Source of the DNA: a phage
DNA: 64,000 nt
Reading direction: 5' to 3' (one strand)
Assembly (NCBI GenBank): GCA_012628545.1
Contig: GCA_012628545.1_3035.1
Part shown: piece by piece, positions 3,391-34,001 of the stretch
How positions within the stretch are numbered: position 1 is the stretch's first letter
Layout: the number at the start of each line of letters is the position of its first letter
Notes under the pieces: generated by a model
What the model was told of the DNA's origin: nothing
Database searches by the model: none
Seen by the model: the letters and a program-made list of their open reading frames with translations, nothing else
Program-made: the position numbers and the translations under genes

Positions 3391-3672
3391 TTAAATTGCC
3401 TTGAATTCTGATGTCTGTGATTCAAAGCGAATATCGCCTTTGATGACTAGCTCAGCATCAAGACCAAATACGACAATGATATGCGCGGAACCCGGATACA
3501 GCGTAATTGCAATAGAATCCACCTGGTCTGGAAGCAAAGTGTTCAATACATGAGTCACTTGAGCATGAATTCGAAGCTCGGCTGCGTTATCAAGCTTTTC
3601 AAACATATTATTAGCGATAATTTGACTAAACACTACTTCTACGATTTTAGAATAAGTCGGAAACATATTCAC
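3391..3672 (-). CDS. hypothetical protein
   Basis: 93-aa ORF. Confidence 0.5.
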   Translation of the reverse strand: MNMFPTYSKIVEVVFSQIIANNMFEKLDNAAELRIHAQVTHVLNTLLPDQVDSIAITLYPGSAHIIVVFGLDAELVIKGDIRFESQTSEFKAI

Positions 3673-28995: not shown

Positions 28996-29012
28996 TCTTA
29001 AAAGGAGGGTCT

Positions 29013-29669
29013 ATGGCAGCACCTAGAATATCATTTTCGCCCTCTGATATTCTGTTTGGTGTTCTAGATCGCTTGTTCAAAGATAACGCTACCGGGAAAG
29101 TTCTTGCTTCCCGGGTAGCTGTCGTAATTCTTTTATTTATGATGGCGATTGTTTGGTATAGGGGAGATAGTTTCTTTGAGTACTATAAGCAATCAAAGTA
29201 TGAAACATACAGTGAAATTATTGAAAAGGAAAGAAATGCACGCTTTGAATCTGTCGCCCTGGAACAACTCCAGATAGTTCATATATCATCTGAGGCAGAC
29301 TTTAGTGCGGTGTATTCTTTCCGCCCTAAAAACTTAAACTATTTTGTTGATATTATAGCATACGAAGGAAGATTACCTTCAACAATAACTGAAAAATCAC
29401 TTGGAGGATATCCTGTTGATAAAACTATGGATGAATATACAGTTCATTTAAATGGACGTCATTATTATTCCAACTCAAAATTTGCTTTTTTACCAACTAA
29501 AAAGCCTACTCCCGAAATAAACTACATGTACAGTTGTCCATATTTTAATTTGGATAATATCTATGCTGGAACGATAACCATGTACTGGTATAGAAATGAT
29601 CATATAAGTAATGACCGCCTTGAATCAATATGTGCTCAGGCGGCCAGAATATTAGGAAGGGCTAAATAA
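29013..29669 (+). CDS. t: holin
   Basis: 218-aa ORF with a single N-terminal transmembrane segment after a late promoter; T4 T holin. Confidence 0.9.
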   Translation: MAAPRISFSPSDILFGVLDRLFKDNATGKVLASRVAVVILLFMMAIVWYRGDSFFEYYKQSKYETYSEIIEKERNARFESVALEQLQIVHISSEADFSAVYSFRPKNLNYFVDIIAYEGRLPSTITEKSLGGYPVDKTMDEYTVHLNGRHYYSNSKFAFLPTKKPTPEINYMYSCPYFNLDNIYAGTITMYWYRNDHISNDRLESICAQAARILGRAK

Positions 29670-29942
29670 TTATTTGTTCGTATACATCTCTAGATATCGA
29701 TATACACCCTCAAAACCCTCGTTGAATTCGTCGATGAGGGTTTTCTTATCTTCTTGAGTTAATTCAGAAACAATTTTACGGAATGAATTCTGATTTAATT
29801 TTCTACCTTCATGCGTTACTCCAATCTCATTCAGAAATGCAATAAAATTAGCACGATTCTCAACAATATCTTCTCGGGAAAATTTAATCAAAATAGACGC
29901 AACAGTAATAATTTCACGAACTGTATCAATGTTTTTATTCAT
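29670..29942 (-). CDS. asiA: anti-sigma70 factor
   Basis: 90-aa ORF beginning MNKNIDTVREIITVASIL; matches T4 AsiA. Confidence 0.85.
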   Translation of the reverse strand: MNKNIDTVREIITVASILIKFSREDIVENRANFIAFLNEIGVTHEGRKLNQNSFRKIVSELTQEDKKTLIDEFNEGFEGVYRYLEMYTNK

Positions 29943-29970
29943 TAACTATACCACTCAATTAGTTGACTTT

Positions 29971-30003
29971 ATTATAATATCATCAGACACTTGATTTGTA
30001 AAC
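29971..30003 (-). promoter_or_regulatory. early promoter for asiA
   Basis: GTTTAC (rc of 29998..30003) and ATATTATAAT -10 on minus strand. Confidence 0.45.
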
Positions 30004-30103
30004 TGATCTGTGTTATTTTCTTTAAAAATTTTTTCTACGAATTCCTTGAACGACTCACGTTCCTGAGCTACATTATGCTCGATTACCTTTTCAAGATTAT
30101 GAC

Positions 30104-30382
30104 TCATTCGAAATAATCTTCAATTTCATAATCATGGACATAAATCATTATAGTTTTTAATACATCATCAATACTTTTTCCTGGAGCTGGAATTACGTAA
30201 AAATATCCTGCTTTTGAGAGGTCTTTGTAAGTTCCAATCAAGAAATCATTATTCTCAAGATGTAGTTCTTCAACTAATTCATTAACAATTGAGTGGTATA
30301 AATTTGGTAGAAACTTATATAGCTTTTCTAGAATATCAATTTTGATTGTATATTGAACCACGGACTGAGAATCAATAATCAT
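30104..30382 (-). CDS. arn: anti-restriction protein Arn (McrBC inhibitor)
   Basis: 92-aa acidic ORF; length and synteny match T4 Arn. Confidence 0.7.
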   Translation of the reverse strand: MIIDSQSVVQYTIKIDILEKLYKFLPNLYHSIVNELVEELHLENNDFLIGTYKDLSKAGYFYVIPAPGKSIDDVLKTIMIYVHDYEIEDYFE

Positions 30383-30465
30383 AGACCTTCCCCTTATGTT
30401 TCTGTTTGCGATTAGATTCTTTAAACGCTTTCTTCTTATCTTTATGAACAGAAGCTTTATTAAAA

Positions 30466-30684
30466 TTATGTTTTGCGACTAAATTGTTCATAGTGCTGAA
30501 TTACCTCTCTTAAACATTTGCATGTGAATGAAAACTTTTTAGCTACACCACATTCAAATATATGTTCTCTTAAATCGCGTGTATCGGTATATCCCATCTC
30601 AACAATAAAGTGCCTTATCAGATTTTTATCTTTATCATTCAGAGAGTTAAAATAGTCAGATTTTGAATTAATTTCCCTGGCCAA
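30466..30684 (-). CDS. hypothetical protein
   Basis: 72-aa ORF. Confidence 0.45.
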   Translation of the reverse strand: MAREINSKSDYFNSLNDKDKNLIRHFIVEMGYTDTRDLREHIFECGVAKKFSFTCKCLREVIQHYEQFSRKT

Positions 30685-30964
30685 ATTGAATCACCTTCAG
30701 TTGACGTTTTAGCTCTTTTATCATCTCTTCGTTCATCGCAATATAAAGATCGCGTAAAGCAGGTTTTAGCATGTCATTTATTATAGAACTAAATGGACAT
30801 ACATAATCTTTTCCTACAAGCTTTTTGGTGAATTCCATATCGCAGAACTTAAATCCCGGCTCATTGGTATAAATTCCCCAATTAGTTGACATCATTTTAT
30901 TAGCATATTCCAGTGCCTGGATTTGATTCATAATTCCATCGATTTGAAACTTTTTAATATTCAT
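30668..30964 (-). CDS. hypothetical protein
   Basis: 98-aa ORF. Confidence 0.5.
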   Translation of the reverse strand: MNIKKFQIDGIMNQIQALEYANKMMSTNWGIYTNEPGFKFCDMEFTKKLVGKDYVCPFSSIINDMLKPALRDLYIAMNEEMIKELKRQLKVIQFGQGN

Positions 30965-31425
30965 TAGTAAAGGTCCTCAGAGTAAAGTTCTTTTTCACTA
31001 CCACCGCGTTCAATACGTACTTGTCCGGCGTAAGTTGCAATAATCATTGCTTCTTCACGTGTCCAATAATTACTATATTGGTCAATAAACCCTTGGTCAT
31101 CATCACAAACTTGCTGAGTAACTAATTGAGGTTTAACTACATCTAAAACTTCTGCCATATCTTTAGAATAATGACGAGCACCTGGAATAATAAGAGTTCG
31201 TCCATCTTTTAATTTAAAACGGTTGGCTGCGCAAACAATTCGTCGTTGATATTTTTGATTTTCGTCCCAATATGCAGACTGCCAACAGATTTCAGGAACT
31301 TCTTTCAGAATATCTTCTTCTGTGCATTTATAACCATGCGCTTTAAATTTTTCAACAAGACTTTCTGGAGTCTCACGAGATAAAGGAACATTCAACATTT
31401 TTAAACGATTAATAAATGGGTTCAT
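30964..31425 (-). CDS. hypothetical protein
   Basis: 153-aa ORF, start overlaps upstream stop. Confidence 0.5.
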
Positions 31426-31751
31426 TTAAACCATCCTTTAATACGCTGCCACAAAGTTTTCTGTTGAGCTTTGTTAACACCAATTGAGCGAATAACTGGT
31501 TGAGATTCCTGGAATTCTTTATAATCAGCAAGGTAAATTTCATAAGCCGCTTGAACAAAAGTACTGATCGCTGCCATAAAGTTCTTGCGAATTCCCATAG
31601 AGGCTTCAGAACCGCCACGGATGATTAAATATTTACCAGTCTTAATCTTTACGATACTTCCAAGATAAGCTCCATGGTACCAGATATCCCAACCCTCTTG
31701 AGTAGGTTCTGCACAACGACGAAGTTCATTGATAATTTCTAACTTGTTCAT
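31422..31751 (-). CDS. hypothetical protein
   Basis: 109-aa ORF. Confidence 0.5.
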
Positions 31752-31761
31752 TATTTATTCC

Positions 31762-32397
31762 TCACAGTTCAGATGCTACAGTGATTACAGCTTCAATGTT
31801 TTCTGCTGAACGTTTAATGTCAAGATACACATTACCGTTTTTAGCGATTTTACATGACATTCCGATATCAGTAAATTTCTGAATATGATGTTCCATCATT
31901 TTGTATCCAAAAATTCGCATGTTTCCATTGTTGTTAATTTCAAAATTACGAATTCCGTGAGTGCGTTTTTCTAAAATAGCGAGATAGTTACTGCGATAAG
32001 TTTCGACCTTTTTAAGAACAAATCCATTTTCATCTAAAAGTTTTAACATGAAGTCTTTATCTTCTTCCATATCAGAAGTAATCTCACGAGATTTACGAGT
32101 TGCTCGTTTTTTCAGCAGTTCCGGAGCATTTTCCTGTGCGTATAAAGTTGCTGCGTTTGAAATAATATCCTGAGCTTCACCAGTAATGATTAATCCATCA
32201 CCAGATTTCTCTACCAGGCCCTTTTTAATCAATACACCAATATTACTATTAACTACTGCGTTACCTAAATCTGGATGCACCTCACGAACTTCTGCAGCTG
32301 TAATGAAATCTTTCTTAGCAATAGTAATTAAAATCGCAGCAGTTTTTTCATTCAGAACATCGTTAGAAGCTTTGATGATGTAAGTTACTTTAGACAT
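31762..32397 (-). CDS. motA: middle-promoter transcription activator MotA
   Basis: 211-aa ORF; matches T4 MotA by length and sequence recall. Confidence 0.9.
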   Translation of the reverse strand: MSKVTYIIKASNDVLNEKTAAILITIAKKDFITAAEVREVHPDLGNAVVNSNIGVLIKKGLVEKSGDGLIITGEAQDIISNAATLYAQENAPELLKKRATRKSREITSDMEEDKDFMLKLLDENGFVLKKVETYRSNYLAILEKRTHGIRNFEINNNGNMRIFGYKMMEHHIQKFTDIGMSCKIAKNGNVYLDIKRSAENIEAVITVASEL

Positions 32398-32424
32398 TTT
32401 CTAATCTCCGTAATTCTGTATCAG

Positions 32425-32468
32425 TAGTTGATAGTTGTATAGTACCACAGTATGCTTTGGTTGTAAAC
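32425..32468 (-). promoter_or_regulatory. early promoter for motA (conserved family)
   Basis: GTTTAC, 15 bp, TGGTACTATACAACTATCAACTACTGA. Confidence 0.5.
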
Positions 32469-32489
32469 CGTTTTGTGAAAAAATTTTTG

Positions 32490-32522
32490 AAATAAAAAAA
32501 AGGGAGAGCCTCGGCTCTCCCT
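32490..32522 (-). terminator. rho-independent terminator
   Basis: GGGAGAGCC-UCGG-CUCUCCC hairpin with A/T runs. Confidence 0.55.
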
Positions 32523-32526
32523 AAAA

Positions 32527-32676
32527 TTACTGCATGACTGTGATAACTGTCATGATAACACGTTGAATTCCGAACGCAAGAAGACCTCCTGCTACGGCTG
32601 GAACAACACCTAAACCCGCCAGTAAAATGCTACCAGATACTAATGCAGCGCTTGTAATACCAATGAATGGACTCAT
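32527..32676 (-). CDS. small hydrophobic protein (49 aa)
   Basis: Hand-translated MSPFIGITSAALVSGSILLAGLGVV...; ATG overlaps gene 52 stop (ATGA); below ORF-track cutoff. Confidence 0.4.
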   Translation of the reverse strand: MSPFIGITSAALVSGSILLAGLGVVPAVAGGLLAFGIQRVIMTVITVMQ

Positions 32677-34001
32677 TTGATTTCCTCTAAATCTTTGGTG
32701 TATTCGGTAACTACATCAGTAGTTTTCCAATATTCGTTTTCTTCTTTTTTAGCTTTAGCTTCTTCAGCAAGTTTCTTTGCTTCATCGGAAGTCATATGAA
32801 AAATATTCATTCCAACTAGTTTATCAACATAAGAAGAATACATATCGATTTTCGAAAGTTCTTCGGTCAGTTCTTTACGAGTTTTACCCTGTACAACAAT
32901 TTCACCTGAAATTACTTTCTTAATGAAATGTGCCTTGGCAAAGGCTAAACGAAAAGCTGACTCAGTTTCTTTGATTTTGTTATCAATTCGTTTTTGGACA
33001 TAAGTTTTACGAACTTCAACAAAGTCTTTGATTAAATCAACTACGTTATCGTAAACTTGTAGTTTTCCTTTCTCATTAATAACCGTAATATTCTGAGAAC
33101 GACGCTCAATCAACCCGAAGTCTTTCATAATTTTTGCATGGCGTTCTTCTTCGTTATCGCTCAAAGAATATTCTTTGCGGAATTTAACTTTGAATCCAAA
33201 ACCGTGCTCACCACAAGCATCATCCCATGTAATGAAGCCTTTATCTTCAAGTGGGTCTAAGATTTTACTCACATAAGTTTCACGATCATACTTATACGGA
33301 ATCTCAGTGATATGCATTTGAGTTCGTGAAGTAAACTTGTACGTTCCACGAATTTCATATTGACCGTCAATCTCAACGACTTCACCACGAAATTCTGGGA
33401 ATTCTACCTTCGGTTTAGTTACTTTCTTTCCTTGAAGAGCTTGCAGTACAGCTTTCTTGACAGAAGAAACACTATGAGGAAGAATGTAAGTTGCATAACC
33501 AGTTGCAATACCGGAAACACCATTAAGAAGAACAGTAGGAATAATAGGCAAATAGAAAGCAGGCGGAATGTGTTCTTTATCTTGATGTACCGGAGCATAT
33601 TCAGTATCTTTATATACGTTATAGAAATTTTTACTTACACGAGCAAAAATATAACGACTTGCTGCTGCTTTTTGGACGGTACGAGAACCAAAGTTTCCTT
33701 GACCATCTAACAGAGGAAAGTTATTATTCCAAGTGTTAGCCATCAAAGCACCTGCATCTTGTGCAGAGTTTTCACCATGATGATATCCAAGGTCCGCTAC
33801 ACCACCTGCAATAGAAGCGAGTTTATGAAATTTATCTTTATTTCCTCGTGCCAAATCAAGAGCTCGAGCAATAACAAATCGTTGAACTGGCTTAAATCCG
33901 TCAATCATATTTGGGATAGCACGATTTTCAACCGTGTACATAGCATAAGCCAGTGCTTCATTATCAATGATACTTTTTAAATCGCGATTATTCAGTTGCA
34001 T
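32673..34001 (-). CDS. 52: DNA topoisomerase II medium subunit
   Basis: 442-aa ORF, GyrA-like N-terminal domain; T4 gp52 length. Confidence 0.9.
   Translation of the reverse strand: MQLNNRDLKSIIDNEALAYAMYTVENRAIPNMIDGFKPVQRFVIARALDLARGNKDKFHKLASIAGGVADLGYHHGENSAQDAGALMANTWNNNFPLLDGQGNFGSRTVQKAAASRYIFARVSKNFYNVYKDTEYAPVHQDKEHIPPAFYLPIIPTVLLNGVSGIATGYATYILPHSVSSVKKAVLQALQGKKVTKPKVEFPEFRGEVVEIDGQYEIRGTYKFTSRTQMHITEIPYKYDRETYVSKILDPLEDKGFITWDDACGEHGFGFKVKFRKEYSLSDNEEERHAKIMKDFGLIERRSQNITVINEKGKLQVYDNVVDLIKDFVEVRKTYVQKRIDNKIKETESAFRLAFAKAHFIKKVISGEIVVQGKTRKELTEELSKIDMYSSYVDKLVGMNIFHMTSDEAKKLAEEAKAKKEENEYWKTTDVVTEYTKDLEEIK

Follow-up and report, generated by a model that had tools for sequence, protein, structure and literature searches.

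Phage T4 is the best-studied lytic phage, and about half of its genes are without a function. The genes between arn and motA are a typical case, and they raise the question of what they encode and whether they act against host defences as the neighbouring arn does. We analysed a 64-kb stretch of phage DNA (contig GCA_012628545.1_3035.1, referred to as the window) in which this block is complete. A preliminary description of the window, based on guilt by association with asiA, arn and motA, had put the block forward as a source of candidates for further anti-defence factors. The best explanation of the whole, with a probability of about 0.55, was that the block is a segment of an early transcription unit, translated in a coupled manner and encoding accessory early proteins.

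Gene content between arn and motA

The window came from a Tequatrovirus and its DNA was 98.5% identical to PhiZZ6, Sf22 and Kha5h; the block therefore corresponds to the known T4 genes arn.1 to arn.4 together with the Pfam family DUF7230. Exactly the four ORFs of 72, 98, 153 and 109 aa that had been described between arn and motA were recovered, all on the minus strand, and the flanking genes arn (identified by Pfam DM_Arn), motA and asiA were where they had been placed (Table 1). The Lys-rich 39-aa ORF said to overlap the arn start was likewise present, but it had been given the coordinates 30364..30491, which do not hold. The T4 annotation matched the window gene for gene, and arn.1 to arn.4 had the same order, strand and position from arn to motA in both. 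Full-length identity to the T4 proteins (tblastn) was 97% for arn.1, 96% for arn.2, 98% for arn.3 and 87% for arn.4; the counterparts are T4p258-T4p261 (UniProt P22920, P22919, P22917 and P22916). The arn.4 start differed, being ATG in the window (109 aa) and ATA in T4, where a 68-aa product is annotated.

Table 1. Features of the arn-motA region in the window.
Feature	Position	Strand	Description
Terminator	32501..32522		Strong; precedes the promoter-like site of motA
Early-promoter-like site (sigma-70)	32439..32467	minus	TTTACA-17-TACTAT with TG; upstream of motA; consensus scan
motA (flank)	31762..32397	minus	First gene of the transcription unit; 10 nt from arn.4
arn.4	31422..31751	minus	109 aa; basic alpha/beta protein; precomputed Pfam PF26821
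arn.3	30964..31425	minus	153 aa; helical N-terminal part and C-terminal T4_Y16D domain (about residues 58-153)
arn.2	30668..30964	minus	98 aa; only in T4-like phages; precomputed Pfam PF26819
Shine-Dalgarno-like GAAGGTGA	30691..30698	minus	6 nt upstream of the arn.1 TTG; read from the sequence
arn.1	30466..30684	minus	72 aa (probable) from TTG 30684..30682
CCAGGGAAAT	30671..30680	minus	Perfect complement of the ArcZ seed AUUUCCCUGG; last arn.2 codons and arn.1 codons 2-5
GCACU	30609..30613	minus	At the proposed RNase E motif position; inside arn.1 codons 24-26
39-aa microprotein gene	30372..30491	minus	Lys-rich; Pfam DUF7230; net charge +9
arn (flank)	30104..30382	minus	DNA-mimic inhibitor of McrBC; Pfam DM_Arn, E=4e-54
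asiA (flank)	29670..29942		

The consecutive overlaps along arn.4, arn.3, arn.2, arn.1, the 39-aa ORF and arn were 4, 1, 17, 26 and 11 nt, the last two covering the end of arn.1 and the beginning of arn, respectively, and the five genes were not separated by any non-coding DNA. In each of the 40 T4-like loci examined, motA and asiA bracketed the block. Each of the five ORFs had homologues in 808-1583 of 50,697 phage records and their variation was almost wholly synonymous; arn.1 or arn.2 was missing from some phages. Such absences, and the loss of the arn.4 ATG in T4, could be taken as signs of chance open frames or decaying pseudogenes. That reading has practically no chance of being right and is already refuted by the evidence: homologues number hundreds to thousands, purifying selection is evident, AF2 folds are confident and the proteins have been detected in T4. 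The five genes are real, the set arn.4-arn.3-arn.2-arn.1 is already catalogued in T4-type phages, and we consider the gene identities and the gene structure described here close to certain. Correct gene models are needed before genes of the block are deleted, knocked down or expressed.

Gene model of arn.1 and the ArcZ pairing site

In the T4 RefSeq annotation, arn.1 consists of the last 43 codons only, from an ATG at 30597..30595 in window numbering, whereas the window supported a protein of 72 aa. The Shine-Dalgarno-like element before the TTG was identical across all T4-clade loci. In other genera, the ORF had an ATG or GTG start at the corresponding position, the N-terminal sequence DYFNSLN..K..I..FI.E.GY was conserved and the internal Met was mostly replaced by Leu. 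All nine variable codons among arn.1 codons 1-29 in the T4 clade were synonymous, against 9-10 non-synonymous changes in each of the other two frames. These observations indicate that arn.1 probably encodes 72 aa from the TTG start rather than the 43 aa of T4, in which case the published "70-nt intergenic region" is coding. Predicted tryptic peptides of the extension include SDYFNSLNDK and HFIVEMGYTDTR. Arn.1 may be a small helical protein. Four of its residues (H41, C45, C57 and H64) were invariant in nine diverse sequences and are potential zinc ligands; no Pfam zinc-finger model matched their spacing.

The ArcZ target CCAGGGAAAT occurred once in the 64-kb window and formed the best ArcZ duplex of the whole motA-asiA RNA (-20 to -24.5 kcal/mol), calculated with an ArcZ sequence verified in 5417 of 5426 E. 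coli genomes. The strong site was restricted to the Tequatrovirus clade. A study of T2 reported the same 10-nt target in the same place as in the window, at arn.2 +285..+294 (bioRxiv 10.64898/2026.06.19.733364). By RIL-seq and reporters, ArcZ was found to bind at the arn.2/arn.1 junction of T2 and to shield the transcript from RNase E, and loss of mcrC suppressed the arcZ defect (bioRxiv 10.64898/2026.06.19.733364). The 70-nt region that the preprint calls intergenic was probably coding in the window, and the pairing site lay on arn.1 codons 2-5. In Tequatroviruses the weak TTG of the 72-aa Arn.1 would be followed at once by a 10-nt perfect ArcZ target and, because pairing covers codons 2-5, ArcZ should affect arn.1 initiation too. 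If the 70-nt region is coding, the mechanism proposed for the first host sRNA reported as phage-co-opted must include arn.1 translation.

The published view of T2 and T4 treats these 70 nt as a non-coding region with an RNase E site, Arn.1 as a 43-aa protein and the 39-aa ORF as a spacer. The T4 RefSeq annotation agrees with it, TTG is a weak start codon, and the preprint both handles the 70 nt as intergenic and presents reporters that act as if the region governs stability (bioRxiv 10.64898/2026.06.19.733364). One stretch can serve as an RNA element and still be translated, so control of stability is no argument against coding. The nine synonymous codons in the 72-aa frame, the upstream ATG or GTG of other genera, the conserved N-terminal sequence and the Leu at the internal Met all speak against a non-coding region. 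So does the sequence at the place proposed for the RNase E motif, 11 nt upstream of the T4-annotated ATG: T2 and T4 have GcAUU there and the window has GCACU, a synonymous CAC/CAT change at His25. The 39-aa ORF did not resemble a spacer either: it belonged to a curated Pfam family, had 11 residues invariant in 17 variants and, in the T4 clade, varied only synonymously. We therefore regard the published view as very unlikely and retain the 72-aa model of arn.1 as the probable one.

The 39-aa microprotein

DUF7230 matched the 39-aa ORF over nearly the whole model with 44.9 bits against a cutoff of 27 (E=1.2e-11), and phrog_1359 matched it end to end (E=5e-23), placing it in the family of RB32ORF249c-type small ORFs that these two models represent. 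It was found in 1197 phage records. The 17 aligned variants came from several genera and the motif RKQKHKG was nearly invariant among them; in the T4 clade, four of four variable codons were synonymous. The ORF was intact and unannotated in the T4 RefSeq genome (NC_000866), and annotated in Kha5h and RB32. Of the 23 loci with arn or an arn-like gene, 22 had the stop of the ORF overlapping the start of that gene. This stop overlap and the unannotated presence in T4 are additions to what was recorded for DUF7230. The microprotein was kept without any arn-like gene in 17 of 40 T4-like loci, showing that it cannot be a partner of Arn only. With a net charge of +9, it may bind a polyanion, either a nucleic acid or Arn, which is acidic and translated together with it.

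A resemblance in Lys-rich motifs had suggested that the ORF encodes an ArfA-type ribosome rescue peptide; this idea was rejected at an hhalign probability of 0.3%. Its profile gave no match against PDB sequences.

Arn.3 and homology searches over the block

The C-terminal part of Arn.3 belongs to Pfam T4_Y16D (PF26092), a family named after Arn.3; PF26092 was precomputed on all 120 homologues listed, one of them 99% identical to Arn.3. The family comprised 3238 clusters at 50% identity, was restricted to phages and occupied a C-terminal position among the matches listed. The predicted fold of Arn.3 was confident and no solved structural relative of the T4_Y16D domain was found. An invariant set of Arg, His, Gln, Asp and Tyr may form a catalytic site or a pocket that receives a ligand carrying phosphate; Arn.3 may be an effector whose variable N-terminal part serves as a targeting module. 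New for T4_Y16D are the size of the family, its C-terminal position, the set of conserved residues and the finding that no solved structure is related to it. With its large, phage-restricted domain family, a fold predicted with confidence and no structural relative, Arn.3 is a reasonable target for structural and functional work.

Foldseek against BFVD gave weak matches of Arn.3 in three large polyvalent proteins (A0A6J5LI71, A0A6J5LG11 and A0A6J5SNR6; E 7e-3 to 0.1); Arn was absent from the paper on polyvalent proteins (Iyer et al. 2017). Relatives of Arn.3 were found in accessory islands, with neighbours that included NADAR, NMNAT-Nudix, MazG, DUF4406, DUF4326, PTH2 and an RNA ligase/kinase set, none of which recurred across lineages. 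The N-terminal extensions of long relatives carried no Pfam domain. A scan of bacterial genomes by two peptide patterns detected relatives in three MAG contigs only. A Kuttervirus ORF upstream of the Arn.3-like gene was considered as a relative of Arn.4 and rejected, its sequence not being Arn.4-like.

Pfam, NCBIfam, PHROGs and PADLOC gave no functional match to arn.1-arn.4, in agreement with the earlier statement that the four ORFs had no assignable function. Across the same four libraries, the block showed no homology to described defence or anti-defence families, the PADLOC matches being fragments at E>=0.003 only. Scanned singly against family libraries, nine diverse Arn.1 and 12 diverse Arn.2 sequences produced scattered noise only. 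Sequence and profile searches of Arn.1-Arn.4 and the microprotein against the PDB returned nothing significant, fold searches with Arn.3 and Arn.4 were uninformative, and no homology to housekeeping proteins was found in the block. Rfam gave sub-threshold noise only over positions 29000-33000. The literature search found nothing on DUF7230, PF26092 or PF26821; arn.1-arn.4 were rarely discussed in the text of the literature searched.

Transcription, expression and dispensability

Between motA and asiA.1 there was no minus-strand terminator and, by a strict pattern, no MotA box; a MotA-box middle promoter within the block was rejected on the same pattern. T4 early transcripts run on into downstream genes (PMC2988021). 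In T4, arn.2, arn.3 and arn.4 have early RNA and early protein, and arn.1 has early RNA and middle protein (PMC9697503 supplements). The block arn.4-arn.3-arn.2-arn.1-(39-aa ORF) would thus be part of a conserved early unit of T4-type phages running from motA to asiA.1, transcribed by read-through from the early promoter before motA, and stop/start coupling may carry ribosomes from ORF to ORF.

Knock-down by CRISPRi-ART scored arn and arn.1-arn.4 of T4 as "Not Fit", indicating that all are dispensable in laboratory E. coli (PMC11879866 supplement 15), and motA was likewise "Not Fit" in that screen (PMC11879866). The guides for arn.1 and arn.4 sat on probably wrong starts and the 39-aa gene was never targeted.

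What the proteins may do

All five may be accessory early proteins acting on host nucleic-acid-associated machinery or defences. This assignment of a functional class is tentative and has less than an even chance of being correct. No homology, fold or defence-library match gives a function, and the anti-defence reading is therefore speculation. It is also already in print, since the T2 ArcZ preprint proposes such a role (bioRxiv 10.64898/2026.06.19.733364).

In its strict form, that reading makes each protein a dedicated factor neutralising one host immune system, as Arn does McrBC. Besides the proposal of the T2 authors, it draws on a conserved, translationally coupled operon shared with arn and divergent arn homologues, the early expression of the T4 orthologues and their dispensability in the laboratory host. 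The weak detection of an Arn.3-like domain in polyvalent proteins and the accessory islands with NADAR, MazG and RNA-repair genes are also consistent with it. However, PADLOC and the known anti-defence families were unmatched and no block protein had the acidity of a DNA mimic. Across genera in which Arn escaped detection by tblastn and Pfam, Arn.3, Arn.4 and the microprotein kept 60-90% identity; slowly evolving block proteins beside a fast Arn are the reverse of the usual arms-race pattern. The block was linked just as tightly to motA and asiA, which serve the take-over of transcription. Loss of mcrC suppresses the arcZ defect of T2, so Arn alone could explain that operon phenotype. Dedicated anti-defence proteins are, on this evidence, rather unlikely.

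The same linkage could instead mean that the proteins are host take-over or gene-expression factors working with the MotA/AsiA switch or with topoisomerase or nucleoid functions, not in immune evasion. The 10-nt spacing from motA to arn.4 and the position between motA and asiA at 40 of 40 loci fit this proposal, as do the slow evolution expected with a conserved host target and the basic charge of Arn.4, Arn.1 and the microprotein. In T4, gene 52 is just upstream of motA; a Kuttervirus, in which the stretch examined had no motA, carries its Arn.3-like gene immediately downstream of the genes for topoisomerase II subunits. Nevertheless, no DNA-, RNA- or RNA-polymerase-binding domain was detected, many phages without MotA/AsiA carry relatives of Arn.3, and knock-down caused no fitness defect (though motA itself was "Not Fit"). 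A purely take-over function thus appears doubtful, and the broader class of accessory early proteins is retained.

In a more specific pair of linked proposals, the T4_Y16D domain would be an enzyme of new fold or a sponge for small molecules, and ArcZ would directly gate Arn.1 translation, with the microprotein as partner of Arn. Thousands of mainly virulent phages would then use T4_Y16D against a host immune or signalling pathway. In Tequatroviruses, ArcZ would pair over the TTG initiation region of the 72-aa Arn.1, and the +9 microprotein would be translated together with the DNA mimic Arn as its obligate partner. We hold this combination to be improbable. What the analysis adds to the accessory early segment is the probable 72-aa arn.1, the ArcZ site on arn.1 codons 2-5, the 39-aa ORF intact in T4 and the description of the Arn.3 domain.

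Comparison with Arn

By tblastn, arn was found in 485 phage records versus 808-1583 for the block genes, counts that had suggested arn to be a recent insertion beside older genes. This was wrong, as divergent Arn homologues are present elsewhere: acidic ORFs of about 90 aa following the microprotein in other genera matched Arn with an hhalign probability of 95.8% (E 7e-9), while shuffled controls reached at most 1.1%. Net charges were +6 for arn.4, -4 for arn.3, +2 for arn.2, +2 for arn.1 and +9 for the 39-aa ORF, compared with -9 for Arn; the strong negative charge of DNA mimics of the Arn/Ocr type was seen in none of the block proteins. Arn is fast-evolving, whereas the block proteins, neutral to basic in charge, change slowly and have no likeness to Arn in sequence or predicted fold. 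What Arn and the block share is the operon, the early timing and the small size, together with an Arn start codon that overlaps the 39-aa ORF.

Layout and coding status of the block

The window belongs to the genus Tequatrovirus; the 3 kb around the block were 98.5% identical to PhiZZ6, Sf22 and Kha5h and were matched by 846 phage records. Genes were assigned by comparison with the Kha5h and T4 annotations. The preliminary description had reported four uncharacterised ORFs of 72, 98, 153 and 109 aa between arn and motA, and the ORF listing agreed; these four are the long-catalogued T4 arn.1-arn.4 set, to which a small Lys-rich ORF is added. This fifth ORF, a 39-aa microprotein gene, was also present, although it ended at 30372 and not at 30364 as first described. 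Kha5h and RB32 carry an annotation for it; the T4 RefSeq record does not, although the sequence is intact there. With corrected arn.1 and arn.4 models, the junctions from arn.4 through asiA.1 overlapped by 4, 1, 17, 26, 11 and 4 nt, leaving no non-coding DNA between arn.4 and asiA.1.

Features of the motA-asiA region (window coordinates)
Feature	Position	Strand	Size or character
Intrinsic-terminator-like hairpin (strong)	32501-32522	minus	9 bp + T-run, upstream of motA
Early-promoter-like site	32439-32467	minus	after the terminator, just upstream of motA
motA	31762-32397	minus	211 aa
arn.4	31422-31751	minus	109 aa
arn.3	30964-31425	minus	153 aa
arn.2	30668-30964	minus	98 aa
arn.1	30466-30684	minus	72 aa
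39-aa ORF	30372-30491	minus	39 aa
arn	30104-30382	minus	92 aa
asiA.1	29955-30107	minus	50 aa
asiA	29670-29942	minus	90 aa

The block ORFs are real genes. Among 50,697 phage records, tblastn found arn.1 in 808, arn.2 in 950, arn.4 in 1004, the 39-aa ORF in 1197 and arn.3 in 1583. In the T4 clade the 39-aa ORF varied at four codons, each time synonymously; across genera 11 of its residues were invariant and RKQKHKG nearly so, and its score exceeded the curated cutoff of Pfam DUF7230. AlphaFold models were confident for Arn.3 (pLDDT 89.6) and Arn.4 (pLDDT 83.4). During T4 infection, RNA and protein of arn.2, arn.3 and arn.4 are both classed as early; for arn.1 the RNA is early and the protein middle (PMC9697503 supplements).

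Gene models of arn.1 and arn.4

T4 RefSeq arn.1 has 43 aa and follows arn.2 after a 70-nt gap. In the window, its frame extended upstream without a stop as far as a TTG at 30684, with a Shine-Dalgarno-like GAAGGTGA 6 nt upstream, and the equivalent position is ATG or GTG in other T4-like genera. Roughly half of the invariant positions of the family fall in the N-terminal extension (DYFNSLN..K..I..FI.E.GY), and the Met serving as the T4 start is Leu in most other T4-like genera. Within the T4 clade, 9 of 9 variable codons among codons 1-29 were synonymous, whereas the same changes would give 9-10 non-synonymous codons in the other two frames; the chance of this is about 4e-6, a rough estimate that assumes about a quarter of random changes to be synonymous. 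Given the upstream starts, the conserved N-terminus, the Leu at the internal Met and the synonymous-only variation, we conclude from these alignments that arn.1 is predicted to encode 72 aa and that the T4/T2 "intergenic region" would be coding.

The T4 reference (NC_000866) reads ATA at about 3455-3457 of its locus (window 31749-31751), the position at which the arn.4 ATG is found in the window and in the other T4-like loci. Apart from this codon the T4 frame is intact; its annotation begins at an internal Met and gives 68 aa. As the frame is unbroken and the family hardly varies in residues 1-41, the 68-aa model is a truncation. Arn.4 was detected by T4 proteomics despite the ATA (PMC9697503 supplements).

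In the T4 knock-down screen CRISPRi-ART, arn and arn.1-arn.4 were all "Not Fit", that is, dispensable in the laboratory host (PMC11879866 supplement 15). The guides for arn.1 and arn.4 (T4 161775-161835 and 162803-162858) were designed around the RefSeq starts, which are probably not the true ones, so the calls for these two genes are weak evidence. The screen did not include the 39-aa ORF among its target genes.

Transcription unit and ArcZ site

The hairpin and the promoter-like site would mark the 5' boundary of a motA-to-asiA.1 unit, inside which no minus-strand terminator and, with a strict pattern, no MotA box was found. Early T4 transcripts reading into downstream genes are an established pattern (PMC2988021). 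In T2, arn.4-arn.3-arn.2-arn.1-arn lie on a single transcript, and the host sRNA ArcZ pairs at arn.2 +285..+294, shielding the RNA from RNase E (bioRxiv 10.64898/2026.06.19.733364).

The ArcZ 3' sequence was confirmed in 5417 of 5426 E. coli genomes. The 64-kb window had a single copy of its complement CCAGGGAAAT (30671-30680, minus), and the duplex there was the best on the entire motA-asiA RNA (-20 to -24.5 kcal/mol). Because this site covers codons 2-5 of the 72-aa arn.1 model, right behind the TTG, we infer that ArcZ binding should also affect arn.1 initiation. The proposed RNase E motif GCAUU reads GCACU in the window, a synonymous His codon change. As the arn.2/arn.1 junction codes in two frames, conservation alone is no evidence for an RNA element. 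Compared with homologous loci L003-L041, the strong site was limited to Tequatroviruses, the clade with TTG-started arn.1: the junction ranked 1st of 918 windows in the T4 clade, and of about 1270 windows it ranked 17th in L031 (GTG-started arn.1) and 133rd-781st in ATG-started genera, which had an ordinary AAGGAAA Shine-Dalgarno and unremarkable ArcZ complementarity there.

The microprotein and divergent Arn homologues

By tblastn, arn was confined to Tequatroviruses (485 records), a range that would make it a newcomer; this was ruled out by divergent Arn homologues at the same position in other genera. At most other T4-like loci, the microprotein gene was followed by an ORF for an acidic protein (86-99 aa, net charge -9 to -16); such ORFs came immediately after the 39-aa ORF homologue in L007, L010, L016, L017, L020, L022, L026, L029, L031-L033, L037-L041 and L059. 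They were detected neither by DM_Arn, the Pfam model of the DNA-mimic McrBC inhibitor Arn, nor by tblastn. However, hhalign aligned them with Arn over 85 columns at a probability of 95.8% (E 7e-9), compared with at most 1.1% in 20 shuffles, and on this profile comparison they are divergent Arn homologues. Arn-type DNA mimics are thus far commoner in T4-like phages than annotation implies.

By a combined-set HMM, 23 of 40 loci had an arn-like gene, and in 22 of these 23 its start overlapped the microprotein stop. With the divergent homologues, these overlaps indicate that arn is positionally conserved and fast-evolving, and that its translation is coupled to that of the +9 microprotein. The microprotein was kept in 17 loci lacking an arn-like gene, so its role is not solely that of an Arn partner. 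A possible resemblance to the ribosome-rescue peptide ArfA failed on comparison.

The AsiA.1 N-terminus, MSHNLE(N/K/S), was shared by proteins of 50-112 aa in different genera, encoded between the 39-aa ORF and asiA in L010, L013, L017, L022, L023 and L031. The first ~25 residues of the 39-aa ORF matched several longer PHROG families. Both N-termini look like shared modules on variable bodies.

Features and possible function of Arn.1-Arn.4

Searches of Pfam, NCBIfam, PHROGs and PADLOC matched Arn.1-Arn.4 to no functionally characterised family, and no PDB sequence matched them. Their homologues are widely labelled "anti-restriction nuclease" in public records, which appears to be inherited from the gene-name prefix rather than from evidence. 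Arn.2 was found in T4-like phages only. Arn.1 has invariant potential metal ligands (H41, C45, C57, H64), through which metal binding is only a lead.

Arn.3 is the founding member of Pfam T4_Y16D, its C-terminal domain. A profile search of 1.84 billion cluster representatives returned 3238 clusters, 1339 with E < 1e-10. The minimal unit was 83-95 residues, C-terminal among the matches listed and ending in L-[FY]-S-E-x-L-[YH]; longer proteins reached 434 aa, with N-terminal extensions free of Pfam domains. Across 147 diverse representatives, conservation was at least 91% at R84, H85, Q111, G112, F113, D115, R123, Q135, S149, E150 and Y153. Relatives were seen in Ackermannviridae, Vequintavirus-like phages and jumbo phages, and a scan limited to two peptide patterns yielded only three MAG contigs from 185,579 genomes of bacteria and archaea. 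Weak structural matches were to three large polyvalent proteins. No recurrent neighbours were found in other phages; neighbours included NADAR, NMNAT-Nudix, MazG, DUF4406, DUF4326, PTH2 and a phosphatase/RNA ligase/kinase set. These features suggest a ligand-binding or catalytic effector module, with no target indicated. Kuttervirus Arn.3-like genes, encoding 137-aa proteins, bear the label "C-N hydrolase superfamily protein", although Pfam gave no match of that kind.

The preliminary description had proposed the block as candidate anti-defence genes, a reading supported by association alone, to which we give a probability of about 0.3. It is favoured by the conserved operon with arn, whose anti-restriction role is proven, by early expression, by dispensability in the laboratory host and by the genes accompanying Arn.3 relatives. 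Nevertheless, the proteins match no known defence or anti-defence family and are not DNA mimics, and conservation of Arn.3, Arn.4 and the microprotein persists in genera in which Arn itself diverged past detection. Arn alone may also explain the operon's known phenotype, as loss of mcrC suppressed the arcZ defect in T2 (bioRxiv 10.64898/2026.06.19.733364). The block is linked just as tightly to motA and asiA, and a Kuttervirus has its Arn.3-like gene downstream of topoisomerase II genes, which fits host take-over factors equally well, a tentative reading that we weight about the same; the rest goes to other accessory roles. In Salmonella phage barely (Ackermannviridae; L086, 1-3282), topoisomerase II large and medium genes and two small ORFs precede an Arn.3-like gene, resembling the T4 order 52 - motA.1 - motA - arn.4 - arn.3. 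The arrangement may be deep synteny with the topoisomerase genes.

Comparison with known systems

The arn.1-arn.4 block was already known as genes without assigned function, and anti-defence speculation is in print: the T2 preprint calls their functions unknown and "conceivably" counter-defence (bioRxiv 10.64898/2026.06.19.733364). No new kind of system was discovered. Added here, for specialists, are the arn.1 and arn.4 corrections, a microprotein gene that T4 carries unannotated and that is coupled to arn, the divergent Arn homologues, an ArcZ site overlapping the predicted arn.1 initiation region, and a description of the T4_Y16D domain family.
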